The position numbers and the translations under genes are program-made. A stretch of DNA of 64,000 nt from an uncultured Thermoanaerobaculia bacterium (lineage in GTDB: Bacteria > Acidobacteriota > Thermoanaerobaculia > Gp7-AA8), in the NCBI GenBank assembly GCA_964558905.1, contig CAZLGP010000232.1, positions 34,824-98,823 of the forward strand, in the 5' to 3' direction. This document shows positions 1,824 through 61,689 of this stretch, piece by piece. Each line of letters begins with the position of its first letter. Position 1 is the first letter of the stretch. The notes beneath the pieces are model-generated. The model ran no database searches. It was not told the origin of the DNA and worked only from the letters and a program-made list of their open reading frames with translations.

Positions 1824-1874
1824 GCAGTCGAGACTACCTCGGATCGAGCGAGCGAAGCGTTTGGCTACAGGGGG

Positions 1875-1993
1875 TAGATGGGACGAATGGGACGGATGGG
1901 ACCCATGGGACCTATGCGACCCATGGGTAGCTACCATCCCATAGGTCCCATTCGTCCCATTCGTCCCATAGGTCCCATGGTCCCATTCGTCCC
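1875..1993. repeat. 9-mer inverted array B (hairpin)
   Basis: About six forward units (ATGGGACGA, ATGGGACGG, ATGGGACCC...), centre GGTAGC|TACC at ~1931, then about seven reverse-complement units (ATAGGTCCC, ATTCGTCCC...). Confidence 0.85.
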
Positions 1994-2008
1994 CGTGGTG
2001 GTGCTGGC

Positions 2009-2485
2009 TCACTCCGTGGGATCGACCTTCCTCTCCAGACACAGCCGCGGCGCGGGCTCGAATCCTTCGCTGCGGAGGAACGCCAGTAGCTCGAAGTGGC
2101 TCCAGTCGACTTCCGTCCGGATCGAGGTGGCACCGATGGCGCCGACGTTGCGGCGCAACTGCTCGAAGAGCTCGTGGGCGATGCGGGTGCGACGCATGCC
2201 GGCTTCGACGCCGATGGCGTCGATCGATGCTGTCGGCTCGGTCATCCCGTACTCGCCGTAGTAGAGGGACCCGATGAGGTAGCCGACGACGCGGCCGTCG
2301 ACTTCGGCGACGAGGGAAATCTGGAGGCCAGCGAACTGCAGCGCGCGCTGGAGCATGAGCTCGAAGTAGCGAGGTCGCGCGCGCCCCGTGGCGGCGGCGT
2401 CGATGCGGACGACGGCATCGATGTCGCTGTCGCGCATGAGCCGGATGGTGGCGATCTCGGTTTCAGGTTGATCGATGGTGGTCAT
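2009..2485 (-). CDS. GNAT family N-acetyltransferase
   Basis: Track ORF 2009..2566 trimmed to Met28 (GGAG just upstream). The discarded N-terminus is translated heptamer repeat (PPTANRQPPT). GNAT core VVGYLIGS...IDAIGVEAGMRRTRIAHELFEQL. Confidence 0.8.
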   Translation of the reverse strand: MTTIDQPETEIATIRLMRDSDIDAVVRIDAAATGRARPRYFELMLQRALQFAGLQISLVAEVDGRVVGYLIGSLYYGEYGMTEPTASIDAIGVEAGMRRTRIAHELFEQLRRNVGAIGATSIRTEVDWSHFELLAFLRSEGFEPAPRLCLERKVDPTE

Positions 2486-2500
2486 GGTGGCTCCTCGATG

Positions 2501-2607
2501 GGTTGGCGGTTGGCGGTTGGCGGTTGGCGGTTGACGGGCGTCCGTTGCTGAGTCTGGCGGGTGCATCCGCTGCGTCCCTTACTCCCGCCAACCGCCAACC
2601 GCCAACC
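2501..2607. repeat. Heptamer inverted array H1
   Basis: Left arm (GGTTGGC)x4 plus GGTTGAC at 2501-2537, ~47-nt spacer, right arm (GCCAACC)x3 at 2585-2607. Lies between the GNAT start and the SDR stop. Confidence 0.85.
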
Positions 2608-2610
2608 AGT

Positions 2611-3336
2611 TCATAGGCTCTGTCCCGCGTCGACCCGGAGGGTCTGGCCGGTGATGCGCCGGCCGCCGGCTCCGCACAGAAACACGACCGACGCGGCGAC
2701 GTCCTCGGGCTCGACGAGCTCGCCGAGAAGTGTTTCCGCGAGGGCTTGCTGGCGCACGGGCTCGGGATAGGTCTCGGTGAGTGGCGTGCGTACCCAGCCC
2801 GGCTCGATGACGTTGACGGTGATGCCGAGGCGACCGGTCTCGCGGCTGACGCTCTTGGCGAGGCCGAGCAGTCCGGCTTTGCTCGCGGCGTAGGCGGACG
2901 TGCCGAATTTTCCGCGGGAGCCGTTGATCGAGCCGATCAGGACGATGCGACCGCTTCCGGCCGCGCGCATCGCGGGGATCACGCTGCGCAGGAGCAGGAA
3001 CGCGCCGCGCAGGTTCACGTCGTGGACGAGGTCCCAATCGTCGACGGAGAGTTTCCAGACGACTCCGTCCCGCGAAACGCCCGCGGTGTGCACGGCGATG
3101 TCGATGCGGCCGTGCGCATCGAGCACCTGAGCTACAGCGCGCGCGACGGAGTCGGCGTCGCGAACGTCGCAGAAGACCGAGGATGGTTGACGGTTGGCGG
3201 TTGGCGGTTGGCGGGGGTCCACGACATCGAGGTTGACGACGGTCGCACCGGACGCGGTGAGTGCATCGAGGATTGCGCGGCCGATGCCGCCGCTGCCGCC
3301 GGTCACGACTGCGACGCGCCCGGCGAGATCGCTCAT
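2611..3336 (-). CDS. Short-chain dehydrogenase/reductase (FabG/BadH-like), translationally coupled to bcrD
   Basis: Track ORF 2611..3774 trimmed to MSDLAGR (ATG 3336; GGAG upstream; ATGA overlap with bcrD stop at 3333-3336). Motifs VTGGSGGIGRA, S..YAASKAG, NVIEPG. Residues 41-52 are encoded by a heptamer repeat. Confidence 0.85.
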   Translation of the reverse strand: MSDLAGRVAVVTGGSGGIGRAILDALTASGATVVNLDVVDPRQPPTANRQPSSVFCDVRDADSVARAVAQVLDAHGRIDIAVHTAGVSRDGVVWKLSVDDWDLVHDVNLRGAFLLLRSVIPAMRAAGSGRIVLIGSINGSRGKFGTSAYAASKAGLLGLAKSVSRETGRLGITVNVIEPGWVRTPLTETYPEPVRQQALAETLLGELVEPEDVAASVVFLCGAGGRRITGQTLRVDAGQSL

Positions 3337-4244
3337 GCGACGCTCCTCCGCGCCAGCACCTCGTGCCGATATGCGCCCCACAGCGCGGCGCCCAGGGCGC
3401 CGGCGTAGATCGCACGCGGATCGGTGACGATCTCCATCTGCAGCTTCTCCTCGGCCGCCTTCTCGCGCAGTGCCTTGGCCAGTCCCACGTCGGCGGAGAG
3501 CCCTCCCGTGATCGCTACCGTTCCCTCCGCGCCGATCGAGCGCAGCAGTTTGAGGTATCGCCCGGCCATCGAGAGGTGGATGCCCTTGAGGATGTCGTGC
3601 GTCTTGATGCCGCGGCTGACCATGTTGATCACGTCTGTCTCCGCGAGCACCGCGCAGATGCTGCTGACCATCTCCGGATCGGACGCGCTGCAGGACAGCG
3701 GCCCGATGTCCTCGAGGGTGATGCCGAGGTAGCGCGCAACGTTCTCGAGGAACTGTCCCGATCCCGACGCGCACTGACTGGTCATGCGGTACGCGAGGAC
3801 GCGGCTCTTGTCGTCCATCTTCAGCGCGCGTGCGTGCAGCGCACCGATGTCGAGCGCGGCGCGCGCGTCGGGCATGAGGAAGATCGCGCCGCGCGCATGC
3901 GTGGTCATCCCGTAGAAATGGCCGCGGCGAAACTCCACGAGCTCGCCCTCGCCGGTCGTTGCCAGATAGGCGACGTCGCTATTTTGAATTCCCGCGTCAG
4001 TGAGCGCGGCCTCCCACGATTCTTCGATGACCTTGCGCAGATCGCGGCGGCGGATGCGATCGGTGCGCATCGCGAGGACGTGGGTGTCATCCCGAGCGTC
4101 GAGCGAGGGACCTGGGTGGGTGGCGCGCGAGGCGCCTTCTTCGCGCCCCGCCAGCCCAGGTCCCTCGCTCATGCTCGGGATGACACGTGTGATGACAGTC
4201 TTTACGCTGCTCGAGCCGACGTCCATGCCCGCGGTGATGATCAT
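3333..4244 (-). CDS. bcrD: Benzoyl-CoA reductase subunit D-like (BcrAD_BadFG ATPase)
   Basis: Motifs MIITAGMDVGSSSVKTV, MTSQCASGSGQFLENVARYLG, AVLAETDVINMVSRG, GALGAALWGA. Last gene of bcrCBAD order. 4-nt overlaps with bcrA (4241-4244) and the SDR gene. Confidence 0.8.
   Translation of the reverse strand: MIITAGMDVGSSSVKTVITRVIPSMSEGPGLAGREEGASRATHPGPSLDARDDTHVLAMRTDRIRRRDLRKVIEESWEAALTDAGIQNSDVAYLATTGEGELVEFRRGHFYGMTTHARGAIFLMPDARAALDIGALHARALKMDDKSRVLAYRMTSQCASGSGQFLENVARYLGITLEDIGPLSCSASDPEMVSSICAVLAETDVINMVSRGIKTHDILKGIHLSMAGRYLKLLRSIGAEGTVAITGGLSADVGLAKALREKAAEEKLQMEIVTDPRAIYAGALGAALWGAYRHEVLARRSVA
4084..4185. repeat. REP-like palindromic element inserted in frame in bcrD
   Basis: 102 nt (34 codons). 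TGTCATCCCGAGC..GAGCGAGGGACCTGGG arm, ~38-nt loop, reverse-complement arm ending GCTCGGGATGACA. Encodes VIPSMSEGPGLAGREEGASRATHPGPSLDARDDT. Termini match the intergenic TGTCATCCTGAGC REPs at 18.9, 31.0 and 47.5 kb. Confidence 0.8.
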
Positions 4245-5563
4245 GCTGCCTTCCTCTCCGCCGCGCGACGCGCGAACAGCGCGGCGCCGAGGGCGCCGGT
4301 GTAGATGGAGTCCGCCGAGATATTGAGCGCGCGCTCGCCGTAGTTCTCGCGCACGAGCTCCTCGAGCGCGCCGACCGCCGCGGGGTTCTTGGCCACGCCG
4401 CCGGTGAAGGTGAACTGATCGTGGATGCCACCCGAGCGAGCGAGGAGCGACATCGCCCGCAGGATGATCGCGCGGTGCAGGCCGGCGAGGATGTCTTCGC
4501 GCTTCTGGCCGAGAGACAGCCGCTCGCGCAGTTCCGCGCCGGCGAACACGGTGCAGGTGCTGTTGATCTTGACGCGCGTGTGGCTCTCCTGCGCCAGCGG
4601 GCCGAGCTCGTGCAGGCCGAGGTTCATCTCGTCGGCGATGTATCCGAGGTAGCGGCCGCAGCCGGCGGCGCAGCGGTCGTTCATCTGGAAGCTCGTGACG
4701 ATACCCGCCGCATCGACCTGGATCGCCTTCGTGTCCTGGCCGCCGATGTCGAGCACCGTGCGCGTGCCGGGGAACATCGCGTGCGCGCCGAGTCCGTGGC
4801 AGAGGATCTCGCTGCGGATCTGTTCCTTGGGGAAGGGCAGCCGCGCGCGCCCGTAGCCTGTGCCGACGGTGCTGACTTCGACGAGCTCGGTCGCGCGAGC
4901 GCGCTCCACCGCCGCGCGCAGGCGCGCATCGCTCGACGTCTCATCGAGCGCGGCGCCGATGTGTTTCTGGAACGCGTTTTCGATCGTCAACGCCTCGACG
5001 GAGAGGATCGCCGCGTCGAAAACGCCGCAGAGCGCGTCGAAGCTGATGCCCTTCGGATCCGCCGCTGCTTCCGCGAGCAGCATGTAATCGGAGGAGGCGA
5101 GGTCGCGGAAGAAATCGCTCTTGCGCGTGGCTCCCGGCGCGAAATGCTGCCGTCCAAGCGCGGCCATGGAATCGCAGATCGTGTCGAGGATCGACCGCAG
5201 CTCCTGCGCGTGCGCGGCGTGCTTCGGACCGCCCGCGAGCATGAGCATCGCCTCGCGCAAGCGGTCCAGCTGCGCGAGGTGCTGGTGCATCTTGAAATTC
5301 CGCTCGAGGTCCGCGAGGGGATCAGTTGACAGTTGACCGTTCGCAGTTGGCAGGAGCTCCTGTCGACTGTCAACTGACAACTGCCGACTGATCATCGTGA
5401 ACCGCGTCCGGACGAACGCCTCCTCGCGCACGATCTGCGCGGCGACGTCGTAGTTGCTGCGGCTGTTCGTGATGCCGCGGCCGATCAGGTCGCCGTTGCC
5501 GTCGAGAACGACCGCCTTCGTCGTCGTGGAGCCGAGGTCGATGCCGAGGAAGACCTCCATCAC
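4241..5563 (-). CDS. bcrA: Benzoyl-CoA reductase subunit A-like (BcrAD_BadFG ATPase)
   Basis: Motifs FLGIDLGSTTTKAVVLD, VLDIGGQDTKAI, MNDRCAAGCGRYLGYIA, FTGGVAKNPA. 4-nt overlaps with bcrB and bcrD. Confidence 0.8.
   Translation of the reverse strand: MMEVFLGIDLGSTTTKAVVLDGNGDLIGRGITNSRSNYDVAAQIVREEAFVRTRFTMISRQLSVDSRQELLPTANGQLSTDPLADLERNFKMHQHLAQLDRLREAMLMLAGGPKHAAHAQELRSILDTICDSMAALGRQHFAPGATRKSDFFRDLASSDYMLLAEAAADPKGISFDALCGVFDAAILSVEALTIENAFQKHIGAALDETSSDARLRAAVERARATELVEVSTVGTGYGRARLPFPKEQIRSEILCHGLGAHAMFPGTRTVLDIGGQDTKAIQVDAAGIVTSFQMNDRCAAGCGRYLGYIADEMNLGLHELGPLAQESHTRVKINSTCTVFAGAELRERLSLGQKREDILAGLHRAIILRAMSLLARSGGIHDQFTFTGGVAKNPAAVGALEELVRENYGERALNISADSIYTGALGAALFARRAAERKAA
5321..5393. 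repeat. Inverted heptamer element inserted in frame in bcrA
   Basis: GATC-AGTTGAC-AGTTGAC-CGTTCGC-AGTTGGC-AGG / AGCTC / CCT-GTCGACT-GTCAACT-GACAACT-GCCGACT-GATC. Encodes ISRQLSVDSRQELLPTANGQLSTD. Confidence 0.8.
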
Positions 5564-6997: not shown

Positions 6998-8173
6998 TCA
7001 CGTTGCCCACAGTCGGATCGAGTCACTGAACGTCCCGGCCTGCTCGCGGATCACCGCGAACTGCCCCGTATCCTCCGAGTACTTGAACTCCGTATGCGGG
7101 ATCCCTTCGCGATCGAGCGCGGCGACGAGCATCGGCTGATCGAGCAGAGCGGGATCGCAGAAGCTCGCCGCGCAGAAGATCACTCCCTCGGCCGTGTTGC
7201 GGCCGACGGAGTCGATCACCCAGCGCCCGCGGTCGCCCTCCGGCGCATAGCGCGACGCGCTCATCGCGCTGTGATTCAGGTACGCGTCGACGAGGCTCCC
7301 CAGAGGGTCGTCGCTCTCCGGGACGTCGTCCTGCAGCCAGCGCAGACCGATCAGAAAGTCGTCGTCGACGACATAGCACCCGGCCCGTTCCAGGGTCAGC
7401 GCGAGCCCGTGCGGCGGTTGCTCGCAGAACATCCCCACGAGCACGACGCGGCTGCGGTCCTGGTCGCGGCGCTCGGTCTCCAGCGGCGCGAGTTCGAGGT
7501 ATTCGCGCAGCATCTCCGTGTGCTCTTCGACCGGCAGCACGTTGCCCGCGCGCAGGAGCAGGTAGGCCTCGGACATTGGATGGATCCACGGCTTGCGGCT
7601 GCGCGCGCGATAGAGATCGCGGATCGCGCGGCGGTTCTCGTTGTAGACGGCGACGCTCGCGCGGAGCGCGTCGTCGGTGATGGCGTTGCCCGAGATGCGC
7701 TCGAAGTCGCGCCGCAGCGTCTCCAGCTCGCGGCGCCAGAAGAGCCCTCCCACCGCCGGATCGAAGTTCTGCGGCAGGTCGACGTAATGGATATAGGGTT
7801 GTAAAGGGCGATCGGGGAAGATCATCGACCACATGCCCGAGAGATTGCGGATGACGTCGCAGATCGCGGGAAAGAGCATGCCGTCGAGGACGTCGAGACG
7901 ATGCGAGAGCGCCAGCTCGATCGTGCTGCGCGGGATGCGGCAGATGTAGCTCTGGAAATACGCGTCGCCGCGGATGATCTCCATCCGATCGCCGCCACCG
8001 ACGACTCCGACGGGGAGCATGCCCGCGGCGTGAATGAGCTCGCGGGGTACGTAGGTCGGCATGTGCCCGATCGCCTTGCGTCCGGATGCGCCCCCTTTCC
8101 AGCGCTTCACCGCCGTCAAGTCGAGGTCGTCCGACAGCGACTTCGTGCGCGTGAGCAGTTCGTCGAGGGTCAT
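6998..8173 (-). CDS. bcrC: Benzoyl-CoA reductase subunit C-like (2-hydroxyacyl-CoA dehydratase family)
   Basis: Track ORF 6998..8647 trimmed to MTLDELL (Met159, ATG 8173, ATGA overlap with dch stop). Strings YFQSYICRIPRSTIE, FPAICDVIRNLSGMW, GVIFCAASFCDPALLD. 391 aa. Confidence 0.8.
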   Translation of the reverse strand: MTLDELLTRTKSLSDDLDLTAVKRWKGGASGRKAIGHMPTYVPRELIHAAGMLPVGVVGGGDRMEIIRGDAYFQSYICRIPRSTIELALSHRLDVLDGMLFPAICDVIRNLSGMWSMIFPDRPLQPYIHYVDLPQNFDPAVGGLFWRRELETLRRDFERISGNAITDDALRASVAVYNENRRAIRDLYRARSRKPWIHPMSEAYLLLRAGNVLPVEEHTEMLREYLELAPLETERRDQDRSRVVLVGMFCEQPPHGLALTLERAGCYVVDDDFLIGLRWLQDDVPESDDPLGSLVDAYLNHSAMSASRYAPEGDRGRWVIDSVGRNTAEGVIFCAASFCDPALLDQPMLVAALDREGIPHTEFKYSEDTGQFAVIREQAGTFSDSIRLWAT

Positions 8174-20033: not shown

Positions 20034-22631
20034 ATGAAAGATGTAGGGTACGCCATGAAAGACGGCCCGGTTGACGGAACGACCGGGCGAGCCAACGGTC
20101 GCCCGCATGGGCCCGATCCGCGCGGTCCTCGCGGTACCGCGGACGAGCGTGAACCGGGCTTGGGCCGTTGGCTGGGCAGGCGACGGGCGTCAGGGAAACG
20201 AACGCTCATTGCTGGATGGACGATCTGGCTCGCCTGGATGACCGTCCTTGCCAGCGGAAGCGCGCTCGCGGGGGAGTGCCCCAATGTGTTCTTTTATCCG
20301 CTCAGGAACGTCATCTATTCAGACTGCGAAGCTCGGTCCAGCGGGCAGCACTTTGTCTTCAGAATCGACAAGAGCGATTTCTTCTCGGGTGAGCTCGCCG
20401 CATCCGTTCTCGAGCCTTTTGAGCCTGCCGCGGGAGGGCCAATCCCGTATTTCACGCCCGTGTACTACGGGTTCTACGAGAGCACTACGGGCGATGCCTG
20501 CGCGCTGATCAGTTATCCGCTCAACGATGTCAGGGAAATAGTCGGGACATCGGGCCGCTACTATTGTCTCGTCGCCAGCGAATCGAATACCGCGGGAGGT
20601 CGCGAACAGCGGATCAGCGGGCAGTGGTTCATCGTCCCTGGGGCGGGAACCAATTGGGAAGGCATACGGATGACTGACTCGGCCATCCCCTGGTCCCTGA
20701 CCCTCGATTCCTCCGGCAGCGGGAGCGGCACCATTGGAGGCGCCGGCTCCTATGTCGTCGGCGAATCCATCAGCCTCACGGCGATCGCGGACAGCGGCAG
20801 CACCTTTACCGGCTGGAGTGGCGACGCCCCCTGTGCCGCCAGCTTCACGATGCCGGATGCAGACGTGAGCTGCACCGCGAACTTCACCCTCAATAGCCAC
20901 GCCGTTTCGACGAGCAGCGGAGGAACCGGCAGCGGCAGCACCGGTGGCGACGGGACGTACGTTTTCAATTCGACCGTCACGCTCACCGCCAGCCCGGCCA
21001 CCGGCAGCACCTTTACCGGTTGGAGCGGTCACCCGCTGTGTGCTCCCAGTTTCAGCATGCCCGACGAGGCGGTGAGCTGTACTGCAATCTTCACTCTGAA
21101 CAGCTACGCCATCACCACCACCGCGAGCCCGGCGGCGGGCGGCACGGTCGACTGCAGCCCGAACCCGGTGGATCATGGCAGTGAGAGCACCTGCACCCCC
21201 TCCGCGACCCTCGGCTACACCTTCGCCGGCTTCAGCGGCGACTGCAGCGGAACGACCTGCGTGTTGACGAATGTCACGGCCGACCGAAGCGTCACCGCGG
21301 ACTTCACCCTGAATAGCCACGCCGTTTCGACGAGCAGCGGAGGAACCGGTAGCGGCAGCACCGGTGGCGACGGGACCTACGACTTCGGTTCGACCGTCAC
21401 ACTCACCGCCAGCGCGGACACCGGCAGCACCTTTACCGGCTGGAGTGGCCACCCGCTCTGCGCCGCCAGCTTCAGCATGCCCGACGAGGCGGTGAGCTGT
21501 GTCGCAAGTTTTAGTGTGAACAGCTACGCCATCACCACCACCGCGAGCCCGGCCGCCGGCGGCACGGTCGATTGCAACCCGAACCCGGTGGATCATGGCA
21601 GTGAGAGCACCTGCACCGCCTCCGCGAACCTCGGCTACACCTTCGCCGGCTTCAGCGGCGACTGCAGCGGGACGACCTGCGTGTTGACGAATGTCACCGC
21701 GGACAGAAGCGTCAGCGCAGACTTCACCCTGAACAGTCATGCCGTTTCGACCAGCAGCGGAGGAACCGGCAGCGGCAGCACCGGTGGCGACGGGACCTAC
21801 GACTTCGGTTCGACCGTCACACTCACCGCCACCCCCGACATCGGCAGCACTTTCACCGAATGGAGCGGTCACCCGCTCTGTGCCGCCAGCTTCAGCATGC
21901 CCGACGAGGCGGTGAGCTGTGTCGCAATTTTTATTCTGAACAGCTACGCCATCACCACCACCGCGAGCCCGGCCGTCGGCGGCACGGTCGATTGCAGCCC
22001 GAACCCGGTGGAGCATGGCGGTGAGAGCACCTGCACGGCAACCGCCACACCGGGTGAAGGCTATGAGCTCGCAGGCTTCAGCGGTGACTGCTCGGGCCCG
22101 AATTGCAGCCTCGTGAGCATTACGTCGCCGCAGCATGTGACGGCACATTTTGATCCCGTGACCGAAATCGTTCTCGTCACTCGGGCCGGATCAGAAGCCT
22201 CGCTTTCGGTCAGTGGTCCGGGTTGCCGGATCGTCGAAGGGCAATTCGTTTCAGCCCCGAGTGGCGGACCGGCCAACGTGACGTTCCCATTCGGGTTGTT
22301 GGACTTCACGCTGAGAGGTTGTACCGGGGAAGCGGTGGTCACGGTGACCTATCCGACCGCGCTGCCTTCGGACGCCGGCTATTGGAAAGAAGCTGACGGT
22401 GTATTCAGTCCATACCCCGCCGACTTCAGCGGGAACAGTGTGACCTTCACTCTGGTGGACAACGGCTCGGGCGACAGCGACCCCACCGCCGGCACGATCC
22501 GGGATCCCAGTGGCGTCGGGTTTGTCTCCGCTTCGGCGATCACCTCGATCCCTCTGCTGTCTCCATGGAGCGCGCTCGCGTTGGCGCTCTTCATGGCCTT
22601 GATCGCCGGTTGGCGCATTGCCCACGCATAA
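20034..22631 (+). CDS. Large secreted repeat protein (InlB-B-repeat-like modules) with IPTL-CTERM-like C-terminal sorting signal; start uncertain
   Basis: Repeated modules ..GSTFTGWSG.P.CA.SF.MPD..VSC.A.F.LNS... Three near-identical ~420-nt DNA repeats (about 20886, 21306, 21726). C-terminus SIPLLSPWSALALALFMALIAGWRIAHA. Confidence 0.75.
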   Translation: MKDVGYAMKDGPVDGTTGRANGRPHGPDPRGPRGTADEREPGLGRWLGRRRASGKRTLIAGWTIWLAWMTVLASGSALAGECPNVFFYPLRNVIYSDCEARSSGQHFVFRIDKSDFFSGELAASVLEPFEPAAGGPIPYFTPVYYGFYESTTGDACALISYPLNDVREIVGTSGRYYCLVASESNTAGGREQRISGQWFIVPGAGTNWEGIRMTDSAIPWSLTLDSSGSGSGTIGGAGSYVVGESISLTAIADSGSTFTGWSGDAPCAASFTMPDADVSCTANFTLNSHAVSTSSGGTGSGSTGGDGTYVFNSTVTLTASPATGSTFTGWSGHPLCAPSFSMPDEAVSCTAIFTLNSYAITTTASPAAGGTVDCSPNPVDHGSESTCTPSATLGYTFAGFSGDCSGTTCVLTNVTADRSVTADFTLNSHAVSTSSGGTGSGSTGGDGTYDFGSTVTLTASADTGSTFTGWSGHPLCAASFSMPDEAVSCVASFSVNSYAITTTASPAAGGTVDCNPNPVDHGSESTCTASANLGYTFAGFSGDCSGTTCVLTNVTADRSVSADFTLNSHAVSTSSGGTGSGSTGGDGTYDFGSTVTLTATPDIGSTFTEWSGHPLCAASFSMPDEAVSCVAIFILNSYAITTTASPAVGGTVDCSPNPVEHGGESTCTATATPGEGYELAGFSGDCSGPNCSLVSITSPQHVTAHFDPVTEIVLVTRAGSEASLSVSGPGCRIVEGQFVSAPSGGPANVTFPFGLLDFTLRGCTGEAVVTVTYPTALPSDAGYWKEADGVFSPYPADFSGNSVTFTLVDNGSGDSDPTAGTIRDPSGVGFVSASAITSIPLLSPWSALALALFMALIAGWRIAHA

Positions 22632-22804: not shown

Positions 22805-23121
22805 ATGCGCTACCGTATGCTGTCCGTCCTTCTGGTGGTCGCCTTGCCGCTCTCCGCGGCGACGTTCACCGTCACCAACACCAACGACAGCGGTGCGGGA
22901 TCGCTGCGTCAGGCGATCGACGACGCCAACAGCGCCGGCGTCGGCCCGCACAACATCGAGTTCAACAGGGTGCGACCCTCGGATCACCGGCCACCGCGGT
23001 CGTGACGATCATCGACAACGATGCCGCCACGCTCGCCGCGATTCCGACGGCCTCGGAGTGGGGACTGCTCCTGTTGTCGATGGTCCTCGCGTTCGCGGGC
23101 GCGATGGCGATGCGACGTTGA
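22805..23121 (+). pseudogene. Deletion remnant of an IPTL-CTERM surface protein (signal peptide + CSLREA-like start fused out of frame to last ~45 aa)
   Basis: [49 protein letters not shown] stops at 23005. In another frame [50 protein letters not shown] runs to TGA 23119-23121. Confidence 0.55.
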
Positions 23122-23604: not shown

Positions 23605-24082
23605 CACGCGCGCGCACGAGATTTGTCCGCGGCTCATCGTCGCTCCTTTCTTCCGACGGCGCTCGAGAAATGCTTCCTAGCTCCACTCGGGTGATGTGCT
23701 GACGATCGAGCGCGATCTGAGTCTCCCCTCCCACGAAAGCGATTGCCGGCCAGTCGAGCTCCACCGGTCCGTCGTAGTACAGCGGTTCGAGGCGCGCTTC
23801 TACCTCCGCGAGGGCGACAATCGGCTGCTCGAACGGCTGGTGTGAGCGTGCCCGAAAAGACCCCAATCCCCGTTCGACAGAGGCAATGGCCTCTTCCTTC
23901 TCCATCGTGTCGCCGCCGACCATGTGCTCCTTCAGATACGCGACGATGGACTGGCACGCTCGGGCAGGACCGAGGCCCCACGCATCGGCGACAGCGGCAT
24001 GATTGGCCCGAACGATGCGATCGAAGACGGGCACGTTCGCAGTCCCTTTCTGGCTCTCAGTCGTCGATTGGCTCGACACCAA
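23531..24082 (-). CDS. Hypothetical protein downstream of arr (boundaries doubtful)
   Basis: 183-aa ORF with no recognisable motif. Its 5' end overlaps the arr stop by 26 nt and its 3' end overlaps the TonB-C pseudogene. The C-terminal third looks non-protein-like (RPPRTAHRQARHPTYRA). Confidence 0.3.
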   Translation of the reverse strand: MVSSQSTTESQKGTANVPVFDRIVRANHAAVADAWGLGPARACQSIVAYLKEHMVGGDTMEKEEAIASVERGLGSFRARSHQPFEQPIVALAEVEARLEPLYYDGPVELDWPAIAFVGGETQIALDRQHITRVELGSISRAPSEERSDDEPRTNLVRARAMESRTSRPPRTAHRQARHPTYRA

Positions 24083-24779
24083 GTCGGACGAGTCGCTCGA
24101 GGCCGTCCTTCATGGCTTTGAGCATCTCAGGCGAGTGTCCCTGCCAATCCGTGAGCTCGCCCGTGACCCGCAGCGGTTCTCGGGAGCGGTACGACTTCGT
24201 CGGATTCCCGCGGAACTTCTTGTCCGTCAGATTGGGGTCATCTTCGATCGGGCCGGTCGGTTCCACGGTGTAGATCCTGGCGGGACCTTCGCCGGCGGCC
24301 AACTCCGCTCCCCACGTGGCTGCATCCAGGGTGCGGGTCAGGTAGACGTAGGTCGTCGTCCTGTCCTGATTCCCGAAGTTCGGGGCATGGCCCGGCTTGA
24401 TCAGGTCTCCCGGCGCGAGGTCCGCCCGAGTGCCATGGTAGAAACGCCACTCCGTGACCTCGCCCGTGACCCGCAGCGGCTGCCGCGAGCGATAGGACAT
24501 CGTCGGATTCCGCGGAGAGTTGTCGTCCGTCAGGTCGGGGTCTCGTTCAATCGCGCCGGTCGGCGCCACGATGTAGACCCTGCCTGGGCCTTCGCCGACC
24601 GCCAGCTCTGCCGCCCAGATGGCCGCATCCGGATTAGGGGTCAGGTAGACGTAGGTCGTCAGCGAGTCCCGCTCAGCGCCGTCAGGGCGAGGGCCGGGCT
24701 CGATCAGCTCTCCCGGCTTCAGGTCGGCCCGTGTGCCATGGTAGAGCCGCTGTGACTTCAGGTCGTCTGTGGCCGCCAT
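24057..24779 (-). CDS. arr: Rifampin ADP-ribosyltransferase (Arr) family protein with tandemly duplicated catalytic domain
   Basis: Two consecutive Arr cores. Copy 1: YHGTRADLKPGELIEPG..TYVYLTPNPDAAIWAAELAVGEGPGRVYIVAPTGAIERDPDLTD..PRNPTMSYRSRQPLRVTGEVTEW. Copy 2: YHGTRADLAPGDLIKPG..TYVYLTRTLDAATWGAELAAGEGPARIYTVEPTGPIEDDPNLTDKKFRGNPTKSYRSREPLRVTGELTDWQGHSPE... Confidence 0.85.
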   Translation of the reverse strand: MAATDDLKSQRLYHGTRADLKPGELIEPGPRPDGAERDSLTTYVYLTPNPDAAIWAAELAVGEGPGRVYIVAPTGAIERDPDLTDDNSPRNPTMSYRSRQPLRVTGEVTEWRFYHGTRADLAPGDLIKPGHAPNFGNQDRTTTYVYLTRTLDAATWGAELAAGEGPARIYTVEPTGPIEDDPNLTDKKFRGNPTKSYRSREPLRVTGELTDWQGHSPEMLKAMKDGLERLVRLGVEPIDD

Positions 24780-24998
24780 CGGCTCGTCCTTTCATGCTGC
24801 GTGGCTTCCCTGCGGTGCGAGAGCGTCGGTCCTGGATGGGACGCGCGCCGCACGCACAACGACTTTCCGAGTCAGACCATCTGGTCAGCCGAACGAAGGA
24901 GGCCGCGCCTTAGTAAAGCCCCCACGCTCAGCCGTGAGAGCCGCACGGGAGAACGACGGCGCGGGCTGCGTCGGCTGCAAGCGCTTGTTGGACGGCGG

Positions 24999-25256
24999 TC
25001 ATGACGACATGATCCGGTCGTACTCAGCGTGAGTGCCGATCCAGCCCCAGAGAATCCCACCTTCCACATCTCTGCCGAGGGCGCGATAGTGGAGGCCGAT
25101 ACGAACGACCCAGTAGCCGCGGGCTTTCTTCAGCCGGAGAGAGGGATGGCGCGAATCTCTCTTGAGGAGGTCGTAGTTCGCTCGCGCGAGCCGTTGGATT
25201 TCGGTGGGGAGTTGATCGAACAACTCCCAGAAATCCGGACTCGTCAGGTGCTTCAA
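24999..25256 (-). CDS. RelE/ParE-family type II toxin
   Basis: Probable TTG start at 25256 overlapping the antitoxin stop (TTGA). Sequence LKHLTSPDFWELFDQLPTEIQRLARANYDLLKRDSRHPSLRLKKARGYWVVRIGLHYRALGRDVEGGILWGWIGTHAEYDRI. Confidence 0.7.
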   Translation of the reverse strand: MKHLTSPDFWELFDQLPTEIQRLARANYDLLKRDSRHPSLRLKKARGYWVVRIGLHYRALGRDVEGGILWGWIGTHAEYDRIMSS

Positions 25257-25465
25257 ATCGCGCGGCTCTTCCCTGCCTGGTGATCGGCAATCGATTTCTT
25301 GAAGAGTTTGTCCAGCTTGCCTGAGGCGGCGTCTCGCTCGATCTGGCGATCCCATTCTTCAGCGTCGAGCTCGAGCAGCCAGTCTCGCAATCTGGAGAAT
25401 TCTTCGGGCGAGAGCTTCTTGATCTCAGTTTCGATTTGTTCGAGCTTGGTCATCCTCTGCTCCAA
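25253..25465 (-). CDS. Putative antitoxin (addiction-module component)
   Basis: 70 aa, acidic, coiled. Sequence MTKLEQIETEIKKLSPEEFSRLRDWLLELDAEEWDRQIERDAASGKLDKLF. Directly upstream of and overlapping the toxin. Confidence 0.65.
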   Translation of the reverse strand: MEQRMTKLEQIETEIKKLSPEEFSRLRDWLLELDAEEWDRQIERDAASGKLDKLFKKSIADHQAGKSRAI

Positions 25466-25548
25466 CGGTCTACCGGAAAGGTCAATTGCGCCCGCCTGAC
25501 GCTCAGCCGCGGCAACCGTACACGATAGAGTAGCAGCCTACGAGAACG

Positions 25549-25849
25549 GTGGCGCGGTTGCCGGCGGCTGCAGCGGCCGAGTTGGCGCGCGAGTTTCTCG
25601 ATCTGACGCCCGGCGAGTCCGCGTTCGTGGAGATCAAGCTCGCCCTTGCACGACGGGTTCGGGAACTTCGGGAGGAGCACTGGACGCAGGCCGAGTTTGC
25701 GAGACGCGTTGGATCAGAGTCAGTCCAGAGTCGCGAAAACGGAAGCGGCCGATCCCCCAGTGAGCGTTGATCTACTCGTTCGATCGTTGCTCGCTGCAGG
25801 TGCCGATCGTCGCGAGCTCGGACGCGTCGTCGGCTCTCGGCGACGTTAA
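25549..25849 (+). pseudogene. XRE-family HTH antitoxin-like gene, frameshifted
   Basis: FLDLTPGESAFVEIKLALARRVRELREEHWTQAEFARRVG in one frame. SQSRVAKTEAADPPVSVDLLVRSLLAAGADRRELGRVVG follows in the next frame. Junction near 25715 splits the HTH. Confidence 0.55.
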
Positions 25850-25931: not shown

Positions 25932-26570
25932 TCACTTGATACATACGGCGATGTCGTTCGCAATAGCCTGCTCGTCGTACACTGTCAGGCGCCGATCGAG
26001 TCGTTGTAGGGAGTAACTCAAGCGGCCTACGTGCAAGACGAGTGAGCGGAGATCGAGATCTTGAGGACGGCTACGGAGCCCCTCCCGGACGCGATCGTAC
26101 AGCCACTCCGCCTCGGCCGGCCCTGCCTGCCGCATGGCGCGATTGACGAGACGCTGAAGCGCGACCGCCGACGCCTCGTTGCTCGCATTCATGAGACTCG
26201 TCAGCCAAAGCAGAACCTTCTCCATGCGTCCAGCAGGGAAGGCGAAACACTCAAAATACCACTCTACCGTCCCGAATGTAGCCGGATCGCGGACCAATGC
26301 TGCCAACGTTGGTGAAGCCTCTGCGAATAACGCTTCGAGCGTTGGCACGAACCCGATCCGTTCGCTCCGTAACGCGGAGTCGAGCTCGTGCAACGCTGAG
26401 GTGGAGCGGCTTCGACCGAAAGTCCGAATCAGGCGGTGAATGCGATCGGCACGCTGCTCCCGATTCGCTGCCGCCGATCGTTCTTGGCGGACCCGAGCCC
26501 AGATATAGATCAGCGGTATGGCGACAAAGAACGCCAGCGCCACGAGAACGCAACCCATGTCTTCCGTCAT
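25932..26570 (-). CDS. Hypothetical protein with one N-terminal transmembrane helix
   Basis: N-terminus MTEDMGCVLVALAFFVAIPLIYIWARV. Remainder helical with no recognised motif. AAGG 7 nt upstream of the ATG. Confidence 0.5.
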   Translation of the reverse strand: MTEDMGCVLVALAFFVAIPLIYIWARVRQERSAAANREQRADRIHRLIRTFGRSRSTSALHELDSALRSERIGFVPTLEALFAEASPTLAALVRDPATFGTVEWYFECFAFPAGRMEKVLLWLTSLMNASNEASAVALQRLVNRAMRQAGPAEAEWLYDRVREGLRSRPQDLDLRSLVLHVGRLSYSLQRLDRRLTVYDEQAIANDIAVCIK

Positions 26571-27075
26571 GTGTCGACCTTACGCCGCGTTGCGCGGCCT
26601 TCTTTTACCTCGCACCCTATTTTGACACCGGCTCGCACAAAAAGAGGGGGCTCATGGTCGAGATCTTGCGGTTGGCCCGGCTACAGTAACGGACTAGCAC
26701 TCAGCCGCGCCAATCCGCACGGGTAAGTCTATCGCGCTTCGAACTCACGTGGCGCGGGTTGGCGACGGGCAGTGCAGAGCTAGACAGCGTGGCGCCGCCT
26801 ACGAGTCTCGCGGCCGGCTGAGATGTTTCCAACGACCAATCCTATGAGCCGCCTCGCGAACGATGTGCTCAGAGAGTTTCTTCCAGTCTCGCCCCGGGGG
26901 TCGGGCTGCCGACAAGACCTCCGTCGGCAAATTCACACGAACTGTTCGGTTCTATCCTGGACTCGATCTCGACGTGGGAATGCCCACGGTGATCGTGTCC
27001 CACTCGAGTTTCGCCGACGATGATTTAAGACGAAGACGCGCCGCATACGCTTCGGGTAGGCTGGCGGCAAGCTTC

Positions 27076-28071
27076 CTACGCCCGCCTCACAAGAGCTATT
27101 GCTCTGACCGCCGACGGCGCCAACGTGGCATCGATGCGGGCAGCGCCTGAGAATGTCTTTGTCTCGAGAGGATTGACCACCATGCCAGAGTGATCAATGT
27201 CCTTGTCGAGTTCGTGGCCATTGTTATCCAACACTCGACACTCGATGCGGTAGGCAGACGGTCCCCTGGAACGGTTCGTTATCTCCACCTGCCAGCCGAA
27301 GCGCCAGAAGGGCGTTTCAGGCTTCAACAGGCGACAGGTGAAGTTCTTTGCGGAGGTGGTCTCGGGTTCGGCGCATTCCACCACAGTTGACAGCCAGCCG
27401 CTGAGCGCCACTGAGGGCGGCGGATCTGATGCTGGTAAGGAGGGTGTAACCAGAGCGGCGGGAAGCGAGAAGTCGCCGGCCGACAGCCAGTCCGCTCCAG
27501 AGTCGTCTGCCTCGCAGCCGGCGAGTCGCAGACGATTCACGAGGTCCCTCCGTGTGGTGGCGGCATTGGATAGCCGAACAATATGGCGCCCGGCGTTGTC
27601 ACTGAACGGCTTCACGTGTCCCAGTTCAACAAACACCGTATTGTCCGGAGATCTGGCGAGAGCTAGGCCGGCTTCGAACAGGACGTTCGGGCGTGCCTGT
27701 GGCGATAAGTCGCGCTCGACCGGCGGTTCGGAAACACCCCACAGCGACGGAGAAAGCCGCACTTCATCGTCACCGGTCAACAGCACGACGACCGCCTGGG
27801 CCTCAGCGAACGCGGCGTCGAGGATCTCTGCGATCATCGGGGATGGCCTGCCGGTACGGGCGACGGCCTGCGTCCATTCGAGGGGGCGCAGGCTCACGCT
27901 ACGCAGGAATGCGAAGAGGGCGTCGCGCGCAGCGACGTTCCTTCCGTGAACCACGAATACTGTGTCCTTGCGTGGCAAGATTGCCCTCAATCTGTTTTCA
28001 GGACTATCAAATCCTGACCGGGCGGCTTCGCACAAGCCGCCGAACTCATTTCGGTCTCTCTCGAGCCCCAT
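27076..28071 (-). CDS. TIR-like domain protein (Cap12/PycTIR-type, PF10137-like) with uncharacterised C-terminal domain
   Basis: Strings TVFVVHGRNVAARDALFAFLRSVSLRPLEW, AQAVVVLLTGDDE, QARPNVLFEAGLAL (conserved F-E-x-G Glu), FSDNAGRHIVRL. Residues ~190-331 are unrecognised and beta-rich (FWRFGWQVEITNRSRGPSAYRIECRVLDNNGHEL). Confidence 0.75.
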   Translation of the reverse strand: MGLERDRNEFGGLCEAARSGFDSPENRLRAILPRKDTVFVVHGRNVAARDALFAFLRSVSLRPLEWTQAVARTGRPSPMIAEILDAAFAEAQAVVVLLTGDDEVRLSPSLWGVSEPPVERDLSPQARPNVLFEAGLALARSPDNTVFVELGHVKPFSDNAGRHIVRLSNAATTRRDLVNRLRLAGCEADDSGADWLSAGDFSLPAALVTPSLPASDPPPSVALSGWLSTVVECAEPETTSAKNFTCRLLKPETPFWRFGWQVEITNRSRGPSAYRIECRVLDNNGHELDKDIDHSGMVVNPLETKTFSGAARIDATLAPSAVRAIALVRRA

Positions 28072-28135
28072 CTACATGTAGATACAAGTCTATACCCGTA
28101 GATATCTACATCTACCGGTAGATATCTGCTGCCGC
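28072..28135. promoter_or_regulatory. AT-rich cluster of three TAGAT/ATCTA dyads abutting the TIR-like gene start (putative operator)
   Basis: TCTACATGTAGA (overlaps the ATG), GTAGATATCTAC (perfect 12-bp palindrome), GTAGATATCTGC. On the coding strand ...CTACATGTAGATGGGG gives an ATG-TAG mini-ORF fused to the start codon. No GGAG-type RBS is visible. Confidence 0.45.
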
Positions 28136-28178
28136 GCACCCCGCGCGCGCTCGACCCTCTGTACTCCCACTCCAAACC

Positions 28179-29489
28179 TCACCGCGCCCGAATCGCGCGC
28201 AGCGCGCTTGTCCGCGCCTCTGCCTCCCGCGACTCTGCCTCCCGTCCGAGGGTCTTGTAGATCCATACGAGTTGCAGTGGGGGGCGGAAGTCGGCGGGTT
28301 CGAGGGATGAGGCGCGGTCGAACATCTCGGCGGCCTCCTCGAGCTTCGCCTCGCGCACGCGGAGGTGGCCGAGGCGGTAGTAGGCCTCGGCGGAGCGAGG
28401 GTTGATGGAGATCGCGAGCTCGAGCTCCTGGGACGCCTCCGCGAAGCGCTCCTCGGCGATGAGGACGTGGCCGCGGCTGATGTGGGTCTCGGCGAGTTGG
28501 GGCGCGAGCTCGACCGCGCGCGTGGACGCGTCGTCGGCGCGCTGCAGGAGGGTCGCGGAACGGCGAATCCCATACAGCTCGGCGAGGGCGTCGGCGAGGC
28601 CGGCGTGCGCGGGCGCGTACTCGGCGTCGAAGTCGATGGCGAGCTCAAACATCCCCACGGCGGCGTCGAAGGACTCGGGCGTGGCCTCGCTGAGGTAGGT
28701 GCGGCCGCGCAGGTGGAACTCGTAAGCGTCGATGCGCACGGGAGTGGAGCGGAGCACGTCGCGCTGGCGGTCGACCATCACGCCGAGGAGGACGCGCGCG
28801 GTCTTGTTCGCAATCTCTTCCTGCAGCGCGAAGATGTCGCCGAGCTGGCGATCGTATTTCTCGGACCAGACGTGATGGCCCTTGGCGGTGTCGACGAGGT
28901 GGACGGTGATGCGCATCCGGTCCTCGGACTTGCGGACGCTCCCGCGCAGCACGTGGCCGACGCCGAGCTTCGTACCGAGCTCGCGGACGTCGTCGTCTTC
29001 GCGAAAGTCGAACGCGGTCGCGCGGGACACAACGCGGATCTCCTGGATGCGCGTCAGGGTGTTGATCAGCTCCTCGGCGATGCCGTCGCAGAAGTGACGC
29101 TGATCGTGCGCGGGGCTGAGATCGGTGAACGGCAGGACGGCGATGGACTTGGGATCCAGCACCGGTGCCGCCGATACAGACGCAACAGCGGCGAGGGCGC
29201 CGACGAAGCGGAAGCCGCGGCCGTAGACGGTGCGGATCCAGCGCGGCTCGGTCGGGGAGTCGCCGAGGGCGCGGCGCGCGTCGCGGATGGCGGTGGTGAG
29301 CGCGGACTCCGAAACGTGCACGTCGGGCCAGAGCTTGTCGAGGAGCTCCTCCTTCGGCACGACCCGGTCGCGATGCTCGATCAGGTAGTTGAGAACTTCC
29401 AGGACACGCGGCTCGGCCTTGACGGACGCACCGTCGCGGCGCAGCTCATAACGGTCGAGATTGAGCTCGAACTCACCAAAACGGAACAT
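28179..29489 (-). CDS. Winged-helix (OmpR/CadC-type) DNA-binding protein with TolB-N-like and TPR domains
   Basis: MFRFGEFELNLDRYELRRDG..EPRVLEVLNYLIEHRDRVVPKEELLDKLWP..WIRTVYGRGFRF. Central SIAVLPFTDLS.. module. C-terminal TPR-like repeats. Start taken at Met11. Confidence 0.8.
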   Translation of the reverse strand: MFRFGEFELNLDRYELRRDGASVKAEPRVLEVLNYLIEHRDRVVPKEELLDKLWPDVHVSESALTTAIRDARRALGDSPTEPRWIRTVYGRGFRFVGALAAVASVSAAPVLDPKSIAVLPFTDLSPAHDQRHFCDGIAEELINTLTRIQEIRVVSRATAFDFREDDDVRELGTKLGVGHVLRGSVRKSEDRMRITVHLVDTAKGHHVWSEKYDRQLGDIFALQEEIANKTARVLLGVMVDRQRDVLRSTPVRIDAYEFHLRGRTYLSEATPESFDAAVGMFELAIDFDAEYAPAHAGLADALAELYGIRRSATLLQRADDASTRAVELAPQLAETHISRGHVLIAEERFAEASQELELAISINPRSAEAYYRLGHLRVREAKLEEAAEMFDRASSLEPADFRPPLQLVWIYKTLGREAESREAEARTSALRAIRAR

Positions 29490-29577
29490 GGAAGGATTGA
29501 TCCCGAACTTTCCCCACATTCTCTCCCGGATTCGCGGGGCGCACGGACTCTACCTTGCGTGTAACCGGTTACGGGGA

Positions 29578-44537: not shown

Positions 44538-44932
44538 CCGCGTAGCGGGCTAAAGGCAATAGCCCCCGGCTTCAGCCGCAATGGCGTTAACTTTAGGCGA
44601 GGGCGTCGTCTTGTTGGCGTTCAGCGACTCCCCACTCGACGAGAGAGTGGCCTGATCAGCGCCGGAGGCGCGGCAGAGGGTAGCCGGTGGCGAGCGCGGG
44701 CGCCGCCACCGGAAGAAGACGGCGTGCAGGAAGTCCGCCCCGGCGGGGCGGAAGAGGTTGTCTGCCGCCCCACCGGGGCGGGTCATTCGCGGTCGCCCGC
44801 GTTTACGGGGGCGGCGCATTCGCGCTCGCCACCGGCTACCCTCTTTAGCGCCTCCGGCGCAGGTGCCCGAGCCTAAAGTTAACGCCATTGCGGCTGAAGC
44901 CGGGTGCTATTTCCTACCGCCGCCTACGGCGG
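44538..44932. mobile_element. Nested palindromic elements: MITE-A (about 44675-44844, extended IR 44657-44862) inside a second inverted-repeat element
   Basis: Outer arms are CCGCGTAGCGGGCTAAAGGCAATAGCCCCCGGCTTCAGCCGCAATGGCGTTAACTTTAGGC and its inverted copy at 44871-44932. Inner arms are AGAGGGTAGCCGGTGGCGAGCGCG ... CGCGCTCGCCACCGGCTACCCTCT. Confidence 0.75.
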
Positions 44933-45335
44933 CTGAAATCTTCGCGTCGCGCGAAGAAACTTCAGGTAAGTAGTACAGAGAGCGTCCTCCTCTGTGTCTC
45001 CGTGGCTCTGTGGTGAATACGAACGTGCCTCACGGATCGAACGCCGTGTCTCGCGCTGAGCACGAGAAGGCCCGCCGCCCTGGCCATCACCGCAGCACCA
45101 CCGCCATCGCCATCAGCACCGCTCCGCCGATCGCCGCTCCCGCGGCGCGGCCGATCGTCGCCCACATCCACTGGCGGCGGTTCTGCTTCGCCATCTCCGG
45201 GTTCACCGACTTCTCTCACGCCATGCGGCGCTCCAGGATGCGCGGCAACCGGAACACGTAGCCGACGCGGGGTAGAGCGTCTGCCGCAACCGAGTAGCGC
45301 CGCGGAGAAACTCGTGGCGGCGAGCGGCTGAGGCG

Positions 45336-61507: not shown

Positions 61508-61689
61508 AGACCCGCGGAGCGCCCGCATGCGGAGCGCCGGCTTCCAGCCGGCCGCTCCGCCGGCATCCTGCCGGCCCGCTCTCGCGAGGAACCCGGCGGC
61601 TGGAAGCCGGCGTAGCGGCCGCCTGGAAGGCGGCGCTGGAGTTTGGCCTTTTCGCGGCGCCGCAGGGAGATCGTCCCGGAGGGACATCA

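Follow-up and report, generated by a model that had tools for sequence, protein, structure and literature searches.

What does a lone gene for a TIR-like protein, lying on the minus strand of a 64-kb stretch of DNA from an uncultured Thermoanaerobaculia bacterium (hereafter the window, meaning the whole stretch analysed), represent, and what are the palindromic dyads that precede it? An initial annotation made from the sequence letters had proposed an undescribed defence module, and had placed the gene in no integron context. Comparison with related loci instead identifies the gene, here termed TIR-Ig, as an integron gene cassette in first position, and the explanation that we judge to be probable is that the region comprises the attI end and first cassettes of a chromosomal integron without an integrase (lost, or never nearby), cassette 1 coding for an abortive-infection TIR NADase. 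The parts of the gene are as follows.

27076..27978, minus strand: probable TIR-Ig coding sequence, 300 aa, TTG start, stop codon TAG at 27076-27078.
27568..27960, minus strand: TIR domain of the PF10137 (Cap12/PycTIR) type as delimited by Pfam, with the catalytic Glu codon GAA at 27673-27675.
27403..27459, minus strand: variable Pro/Ser/Ala-rich linker, predicted to be disordered (predicted local distance difference test score, pLDDT, below 50), residues 174-192 of the 300-aa model.
27082..27396, minus strand: C-terminal seven-strand immunoglobulin (Ig)-like beta-sandwich, residues 195-299 (105 aa), pLDDT ~90.

The maximal open reading frame (ORF) originally annotated, 27076..28071 on the minus strand (331 aa, reaching to ATG 28071), does exist, and the TIR-like hallmarks claimed for it were confirmed by a Pfam scan in which residues 38-168 matched PF10137 over 117 of the 119 profile positions with 83.1 bits, well above the gathering cutoff of 24.7 (E = 2e-23). 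The motifs VFVVHGRN, AQAVVVLLTGDDE and QARPNVLFEAGLAL are all present, with key residues invariant among 19 relatives. The Glu in the F-E-x-G position corresponds to E133 of the 331-aa ORF and E102 of the 300-aa protein, and when the family profile (alignment A2, 19 relatives) was aligned by hhalign with SfSTING (7UN8_A; E = 3.8e-4), the residue pairs W35/W33, R96/R78, N98/N80 and E102/E84 were obtained, the four TIR-Ig residues and the FSDNAGRH loop being invariant throughout A2. Since SfSTING W33, R78, N80 and E84 have been assigned to the NAD+ pocket and catalysis (PMC9402430), these alignments locate a complete PF10137 NAD-pocket constellation in the N-terminal TIR domain. Searches of Protein Data Bank (PDB) sequences with both the protein and the family profile matched no TIR chain, NCBIfam gave no match to the TIR-Ig protein, and the top 50 structures listed by Foldseek for the whole model comprised Ig-domain matches and no TIR chain. 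Five PDC-S35 profiles were the best matches in PADLOC (top E = 8e-14), covering only residues ~35-189, which aligned with positions 118-258 of a 264-position model; nothing in the protein corresponded to the N-terminal region of these models, the Ig domain is absent from them, and the PycTIR model scored just E = 0.019.

The position at which translation begins determines how the dyads are to be read. Full-length relatives (n = 16) start approximately five residues ahead of TVFVVHG, typically with MPRKDTVFVVHG, and the matching position in the window is the TTG at 27978-27976, the TTG-CCA-CGN-AAG-GA context of which is conserved in loci L001, L002 and L163. The 31 codons between ATG 28071 and this TTG have flat codon-position GC and no counterpart in the relatives, and it is on these two grounds that the 300-aa protein beginning at the TTG, rather than the product of ATG 28071, is considered most likely to be the true one. 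Two further elements precede the gene.

27984..27988, minus strand: Shine-Dalgarno sequence GAGGG, with a 5-nt spacer to TTG 27978, read from the sequence; GGAG or GGAGG stands at the equivalent position in L001 and L163.
27979..28044, minus strand: cassette 5' leader of 66 nt, which moves together with the gene (90% nucleotide identity to L002/L004; alignment A5).

The initial annotation had placed the start inside the dyads without a Shine-Dalgarno sequence; the relatives and GAGGG both point to a start ~93 nt further downstream. The ATG-TAG mini-ORF reported as fused to the upstream ATG can indeed be read there (ATG-TAG-ATG), whereas the claim that this is the most AT-rich 65 nt of the window was overstated, the dyad stretch (27 of 65 positions G or C) merely tying for lowest with a stretch at ~19.67 kb. 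The locus thus presents an annotation trap, in that the longest ORF begins inside attI and not at the real start of the gene.

Nucleotide identity to the closest locus, L002/L004 of a Thermoanaerobaculia metagenome-assembled genome, amounts to 90% over 27082-28045 and is absent outside those limits. The breakpoint at 28045 is the G of GTTCGGC (G|TTCGGC), so that the junction 28045/28044 is the integron crossover point. The shared sequence begins with GTTCGGCGGC in L163, GTTGGGCGGC in L001 and GTGCGGCGGC in L002, with unrelated DNA upstream in each case, and the corresponding junction cores are GTTCGGC, GTTGGGC and GTGCGGC. At the other end, the L004 gene is followed directly after its stop codon by an attC site in which GCCGAAC...GTTAGCC surrounds a 22-bp bulged stem (z ~ -3), and the L163 gene, likewise directly after the stop codon, by one with R''=GCCGAAC and R'=GTTCGCC, in which the bottom strand folds more stably than the top strand (-21.7 compared with -15.9 kcal/mol). 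The attC sites were recognised from their boxes, from folding and with nhmmer. The equivalent sequence in the window has decayed.

27030..27075, minus strand: degenerate attC remnant of the TIR-Ig cassette, the L''-like GCTTGCCGCCAGCCTACCCG being kept and the R'' box lost.

The window lacks the CCGCCGAAC block that both L004 and L163 have (alignment A9), and as a consequence of this loss of R'' the TIR-Ig cassette has probably been immobilised in place; cassette domestication accompanied by attC loss has been described by Loot et al. (10.1101/2022.09.11.507474). The cassette is otherwise compact and promoterless, contains a single ORF, and lies on the same strand as the toxin-antitoxin (TA) and arr cassettes described below. 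Its identification as a first-position cassette follows from the confinement of homology to 27082-28045, the shared G|TT junctions, the attC sites of L004 and L163, and the TA and arr cargo. In L163, the cassette directly after TIR-Ig (1716-2753) codes for a second, unrelated TIR protein (PF13676 TIR_2, 345 aa), so that two TIR cassettes stand there in tandem. L165 has near-identical hairpins of ~67 nt, possibly attC sites of a non-canonical type, one after the TIR-Ig gene (4442-4510) and the other after a different ORF 2.6 kb distant (7021-7092); the surrounding small ORFs all lie on one strand, and an erythromycin-esterase-like gene is among them. An inverted repeat at 22994-23098 of the window was considered as an attC site and rejected, as its AAC/GTT lies on the loop side.

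At the crossover point and upstream of it lie the following two features.

28039..28056, minus strand: attI-type 'simple site', consisting of L box GACCGAA (28056-28050), ATGA, and R box/core GTTCGGC (28045-28039).
28069..28124, no strand assigned: phased dyad array made up of three 14-bp ATCTACnnGTAGAT units with a 20-bp period, the second of them degenerate.

The three dyads reported near the start of the ORF were confirmed at 28070-28083, 28090-28103 (the degenerate unit) and 28110-28123, with a spacing of exactly 20 bp; none of 100 shuffles matched the pattern, and the probable TTG start lies 92-146 nt downstream of the dyads. No dyads are present upstream of the TIR-Ig relatives (L001, L002/L004, L005 and L163). 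By way of comparison, a contig scan for ATCTACnnGTAGAT-N6-ATCTAC retrieved 77 metagenome and two viral contigs spanning GC contents of 0.30-0.69, many with three to five units at the 20-bp phase and 18 of the 79 with at least two perfect dyads. A tyrosine recombinase (IntI-like) adjoins the arrays in L085, L090, L094, L116 and L159, that of L159 reaching 473 bits against the 'integron integrase' model TIGR02249 (cutoff 265), and a strict GTTRRRY lies 23-35 nt past the array in 18 of 24 loci, compared with 3.9% at random positions. The variant core GTTCGGC occurs 24-26 nt past the array in L089, L128 and L142, and 24 nt past it in the window, where both the layout of the simple site and its distance from the array are the same as at the intI-linked loci; the inverted-box layout of the simple site has been described for attI (PMC3146285). 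Because it recurs beside integron integrases and 23-35 nt before GTTRRRY, the dyad array is, on this comparative evidence, part of the integron attI region and not a gene-specific operator.

The first cassettes after the array are unrelated to one another; L117, for example, has a GrpB-like gene there, and L159 an apparent restriction-modification (R-M) pair. The L159 unit (1419-3388, minus strand), the first cassette of a complete integron, looks on reading its translation like an R-M unit with a 278-aa ORF overlapping a Dam-like methylase.

In 27 of the 79 contigs the array is preceded on its 5' side, at a distance of 13-259 nt (median 68 nt), by a conserved small gene (~115-130 aa). The family of its protein comprises over 1100 clusters, every one of them labelled 'hypothetical' (for example L093 731-1075 and L159 3535-3948, both minus strand; P0269-P0388). 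Its sole Pfam match, to DUF5710, is borderline and arises from a C-terminal GGKWNxxxxxW motif, and its AlphaFold2 model (pLDDT 78) matched no PDB fold (best E 0.48). The overall order of this platform module (set L084-L162) can be written as intI, where present; the ~115-130 aa DUF5710-like gene; 13-259 nt; the array of three to five palindromes ATCTA(C/T)nnGTAGAT with 20-bp period (e.g. L159 3491-3597, L090 2099-2160, L106 2321-2414); 23-35 nt; and GTTRRRY. At several loci, intI and the small gene are oriented towards the cassettes. Neither PMC3146285 nor 10.1101/2022.09.11.507474 mentions a phased array with linked small gene at attI. We infer that the dyads are bound by some factor of the integron platform, which in complete integrons would be either the ~115-aa DUF5710-like protein or IntI. 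The regulator reported as lying directly upstream of TIR-Ig, a winged helix-turn-helix-tetratricopeptide repeat (wHTH-TPR) protein, is indeed encoded there (28179..29519, minus strand), its gene ending 54 nt from the array; it was rejected as a candidate dyad binder, as no such gene clusters with the arrays.

Downstream of the TIR-Ig cassette, the minus strand contains the following.

26571..27029, minus strand: stretch without a same-strand ORF of at least 60 aa, probably eroded or non-coding cassette DNA, with no match in 168 loci.
25932..26570, minus strand: 212-aa orphan with one N-terminal hydrophobic helix, without a Pfam, NCBIfam or PADLOC match; third-codon-position GC content (GC3) 0.68.
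25481..25590, minus strand: attC-like site upstream of the TA cassette (nhmmer with the L004 attC, E = 0.13, weak alone), a direct repeat of the 24.9-kb site.
24999..25465, minus strand: TA cassette, in which the ORF of a RelB-like 70-aa antitoxin (25253-25465) overlaps that of a ParE-like toxin (24999-25355; Pfam ParE_like 4.1e-8).
24888..24996, minus strand: attC-like site after the TA cassette, ending in a second GTTCGGC (24894-24888) ahead of arr.
24057..24779, minus strand: arr, rifampin ADP-ribosyltransferase with tandem Arr domains, 240 aa (Pfam Arr-ms 2.2e-85 in two stretches; NCBIfam NF033144, 326 bits).

The second of these attC-like sites (24996-24907) matched positions 2-90 of the L004 attC by nhmmer with E = 0.006, and by blastn over 23/23 nt at 96% identity. 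The TA pair is thus bracketed by two related attC-like sites ~590 bp apart, as in the TA cassettes of chromosomal integrons, and arr, which lies after the second site, is probably a cassette as well; arr is a classic integron cassette cargo. The cassette-side genes have GC3 values of 0.64-0.70 (0.70 for the TIR-Ig coding sequence), compared with 0.84-0.89 for the native flanking genes of this genome of 66% GC. The description of the neighbourhood as a defence or accessory island was accurate in so far as a ParE-like gene and arr are present, and inaccurate in that the genes of the window are mostly metabolic and form no defence island. Similarly, the supposedly ORF-free 26571-27075 is so only on the strand of the gene, the plus strand having ORFs of 66 aa (26823..27023) and 95 aa (26863..27150); no coding-type codon-position GC pattern was detected anywhere in the stretch, these two ORFs included. 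No Rfam family was matched under either gathering or E-value thresholds, and one terminator-like site was recorded, on the opposite strand, at 26584-26598. Neither the orphan nor the ORF-free stretch, the TA genes or arr found a match near any TIR locus (168 loci, 1.37 Mb), and nucleotide homology with the closest locus extends no further than the stop codon, from which the suggested RNA or membrane partner receives no support; to judge by this comparison, the orphan appears to be unrelated cargo.

Three other observations were made in the window. Regions at ~44570-44940 and ~61670-61885 share ~200-nt repeats, in both orientations and at 70-72% identity, with L004 7913-8119, which suggests a dispersed element common to related genomes. 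Among the 55 ORFs of the window one matches PADLOC mad2 of the MADS system (E = 9e-21), the other mad genes not being found. Just beyond the cassette region, 20034-22631 on the plus strand codes for an 865-aa protein with InlB-B-repeat/DUF7507-like modules and a C-terminal sorting-signal-like hydrophobic tail.

With the limits of the cassette established, the nature of its product can be considered against that of its relatives. The TIR core is common to more than 2000 database clusters and to 445 loci in GTDB species representatives, with 50-62% identity across phyla that include Chloroflexota, Acidobacteriota, Planctomycetota, Myxococcota and Actinomycetota. The commonest architecture in this family consists of an N-terminal extension of ~100 aa followed by the TIR domain, which is the PDC-S35 layout; others are TIR-TIR tandems and TIR domains with assorted C-terminal extensions, the Ig-like domain occurring in only ~17 clusters. 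Some members have an N-terminal winged-helix DNA-binding domain (P0006, 405 aa; P0065; P0068), P0006 combining a helix-turn-helix-like N-terminus with TIR and Ig domains. PDC-S35 itself is one of 145 untested 'phage defence candidates' and was found embedded in BREX, DISARM and type I R-M loci (10.1101/2024.01.29.577857); with the TIR core already in PADLOC under that name, and with single-protein TIR NADases and defence cassettes both known, the designation of the module as undescribed cannot be retained. A systematic TIR survey set aside 'TIRs found in standalone proteins' (10.64898/2025.12.03.692087), and a literature search on PDC-S35 or COG4271 turned up nothing useful.

The genes neighbouring P0001/L004, P0002, P0009, P0003, P0013, P0016 and P0008 have nothing in common either mutually or with the window, and because the neighbours differ at every locus the comparison defines TIR-Ig as a one-gene unit. 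No cyclase, SAVED or cNMP-sensor partner and no ThsA-type effector (SIR2/SLOG, Macro or transmembrane) was found beside eight relatives. The view that TIR-Ig stands alone in the window was likewise upheld, PADLOC and Pfam scans of its 55 ORFs having detected no cyclase, SAVED, CARF-effector or ThsA at E<=1e-5; the sole CARF-named match, 'CARF_LolE_TM', fell on the permease (LolE_TM) part of two FtsX/MacB permeases.

An AlphaFold2 model built with a 19-sequence alignment separated the two folded domains by the linker, which is hypervariable in both length and sequence (alignment A1). The C-terminal region, described from its sequence as beta-rich (residues ~190-331) and unassignable, matched nothing by sequence in Pfam, NCBIfam or the PDB, and has not previously been described as a sensor. 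The Foldseek search of the PDB with the whole model returned, for the seven-strand domain, ApaG 1xvs (3.7e-5), GH2 Ig-like domains, DUF1425 3o0l, Cj0090 and the TMEM106B lumenal domain, none of the listed matches having a SAVED, CARF, STING or cNMP fold, so that it resembles no known nucleotide sensor; in a viral structure library it matched only uncharacterised beta-sandwich proteins. The best likenesses, to ApaG, DUF1425 (YcfL) and the GH2 Ig-like domains, have E values of 4e-5 to 4e-4, but identity is just 11-18%, and those domains have no established link to TIR proteins or immunity. A profile of the domain retrieved 601 cluster representatives at E<=1e-3 from the 1.84 billion searched. 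Among the best 148 of these 601, the domain was at the extreme C-terminus in 140, the N-terminus was signal-peptide-like or transmembrane-like in 71, tandem copies of the Ig-like domain were present in 12, and five had a TIR-like N-terminal domain; Pfam DUF1425 was matched by 10 of 147 family members. The TIR-like domains of these five come from at least three further families, namely P0127/P0159 and P0140 (both with NVx(F/Y)ExG) and P0160 (Pfam TIR_2), and the Ig-like domain is thus a common module recruited by TIR-like enzymes more than once. From the model it can be put forward as a putative sensor or clustering domain.

A mechanism can be proposed in which the minus strand is read in the order native wHTH-TPR gene, dyad array, GACCGAA-ATGA-G|TTCGGC, TIR-Ig cassette, eroded DNA plus orphan, TA cassette and arr cassette, transcription of TIR-Ig presumably entering from the attI side. 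The Ig-like sandwich would bind a trigger that is multimeric, a structural protein of a phage being the most plausible candidate; trigger binding would bring the TIR domains together in the head-to-tail arrangement that catalysis requires; and the clustered domains would hydrolyse NAD+, leading to abortive infection. Filaments of SfSTING form under the action of its sensor, and the active site is completed by D110 from the neighbouring TIR domain (PMC9402430), while in SpbK the TIR domains are clustered by the phage portal protein YonE (PMC12847820); integron cassettes are known to carry defence systems, at a cost dependent on their position in the array (10.1101/2024.07.02.601719). By analogy with these systems we infer that TIR-Ig is a single-protein abortive-infection NADase. 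The more ambitious proposition, that TIR-Ig is a new single-protein abortive-infection system with a phage-sensing Ig-like domain, spreading as an integron cassette, and that the dyad array and its small protein are an undescribed accessory module, controlling cassette capture or expression at attI, in a widespread clade of environmental integrons, is put forward tentatively, as something that may well prove not to hold.

A number of results weigh against the integron and NADase explanation as a whole. The core GTTCGGC differs from GTTRRRY by one base at position 4, and taken bare it shows no enrichment in the window, where it occurs 26 times (expected 19.8). Searches by tblastn with the IntI proteins of L159 and L154 found no intI in the window, which therefore lies outside the definition of a complete integron. 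The attC remnant of the TIR-Ig cassette forms no significant hairpin (z=-0.87), the two attC-like sites around the TA pair are non-canonical and gave weak nhmmer matches (E 0.006 and 0.13), and the regions downstream of L001 and L005 contain no significant hairpin and no clear attC. Structural attC scans of the window also found nothing convincing; the constraint-fold and R/L-box scans missed even the L004 attC, a generic inverted-repeat finder misses bulged stems, and the negatives from such scans carry no weight. A sigma-70 promoter scan found no promoter-like site for the TIR-Ig gene, leaving its expression unproven. Folds of the PF10137 type resemble nucleoside and nucleotide glycohydrolases as well as TIR enzymes, and the Ig-like domain is elsewhere mostly extracytoplasmic, in small exported proteins, which makes a cytoplasmic sensor role a conjecture.

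The last two points lend themselves to the alternative that survives best, in which TIR-Ig is not an NAD-depleting suicide effector at all and instead makes a signal in the manner of ThsB, hydrolyses some other (e.g. modified phage) nucleotide or nucleoside in the manner of MilB/NDT, or has a role outside defence. Such an identity would sit comfortably with the comparison of SrMilB with PF10137 folds in PMC9402430 and with the unusual conservation of the TIR core across phyla. It is nevertheless considered unlikely: the SfSTING NAD-pocket residues are conserved one for one, no conserved neighbour is available as the effector for a signal, the gene is found on cassettes beside TA modules and other TIR or R-M cargo, and relatives are embedded in BREX, DISARM and R-M loci as PDC-S35 (10.1101/2024.01.29.577857).

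A second alternative accepts the protein and disputes the platform, holding that the array and GTTCGGC junction are no integron attI, that the gene arrived by ordinary recombination or on another mobile element, and that the resemblance is coincidental. To the missing intI, the degenerate attC and the unenriched core may be added the 52 of 79 array loci, often on short contigs, at which neither the small gene nor intI was detectable. Set against this, the 24-nt distance from array to core and the core sequence itself match those of intI-linked loci, the homology breaks exactly at G|TT, two orthologous cassettes have a proper attC, and the downstream cargo (TA pair and arr) and attC-like repeats are consistent with an array of cassettes, all of which render a coincidence distinctly improbable. 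The weakest alternative, to which we attach very little probability, is the original one of a toxic TIR effector tightly silenced by a dedicated repressor on three dyads at its start codon, with a downstream RNA or one-helix membrane orphan as partner: the dyads are real and non-random, the wHTH-TPR regulator adjoins them and an ORF-poor stretch and membrane orphan do follow, but with the true start ~93 nt downstream behind its own Shine-Dalgarno sequence, all other TIR-Ig loci free of dyads, the dyads of 79 other contigs standing before unrelated first cassettes, no wHTH-TPR gene clustering with arrays, and downstream elements that are neither conserved nor matched in Rfam, the comparative data largely refute it.

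If the preferred explanation, an abortive-infection TIR NADase on the first cassette of an integrase-less chromosomal integron, holds as to function, TIR-Ig would be a cassette-sized, 300-aa, one-gene and cyclase-independent PF10137 effector with a new type of sensor domain, and a tractable protein for studying how TIR NADases are activated without a second messenger; the stockpiling of defence genes, recently found in clinical and Vibrio integrons, would then reach soil genomes of the Acidobacteriota type as well. The most unexpected result, peripheral to the original claim, was that many environmental integrons have at their attI a phased array and a small gene linked to it, an architecture (a dedicated small gene and three to five palindromes at a 20-bp phase, fixed 23-35 nt from the crossover) that could bear on cassette recruitment and expression in non-class-1 integrons.

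Among known systems, TIR-Ig shares with the Cap12/TIR-STING effectors of CBASS (SfSTING, 7UN8) the PF10137 domain, the order of N-terminal TIR and C-terminal sensor, and the aligned W/R/N/E residues, and it is from SfSTING that the model of activation by sensor-driven oligomerisation was borrowed; however, its C-terminal domain is Ig-like and not STING, no CD-NTase occurs in the window or beside the relatives, and the similarity is at profile level (E = 3.8e-4). PycTIR of Pycsar (8JSJ) likewise has PF10137 and the logic of an NAD-depleting effector, whereas TIR-Ig lacks both the cNMP-binding domain and the PycC cyclase, and Thoeris (ThsB) differs in that no ThsA-type effector is present in the window or at the loci of relatives. 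PDC-S35, the nearest PADLOC profile, is also single-gene and has the same TIR core, but there the TIR domain is C-terminal to a region of ~80-130 aa that TIR-Ig lacks, and the models do not include the Ig-like C-terminus of TIR-Ig. The best functional analogy is provided by SpbK of Bacillus subtilis, a one-protein abortive-infection system triggered by the phage portal YonE (PMC12847820), although its TIR subfamily and its non-TIR domain are both different. Integron defence cassettes (BRiCs) and sedentary chromosomal integrons offer the compact promoterless unit, G|TTRRRY, the TA and resistance cassettes, and defence in first place (cf. L159), and the window departs from them in its missing intI, its eroded attC and an attI with a phased palindromic array, accompanied in complete copies by the linked small gene. 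On these sequence comparisons, the most fitting description of TIR-Ig is that of a PF10137 TIR effector independent of a cyclase, ending in an Ig-like domain and carried on an integron cassette at an attI site without an integrase; it varies what is already known and does not amount to a defence system of a new kind.

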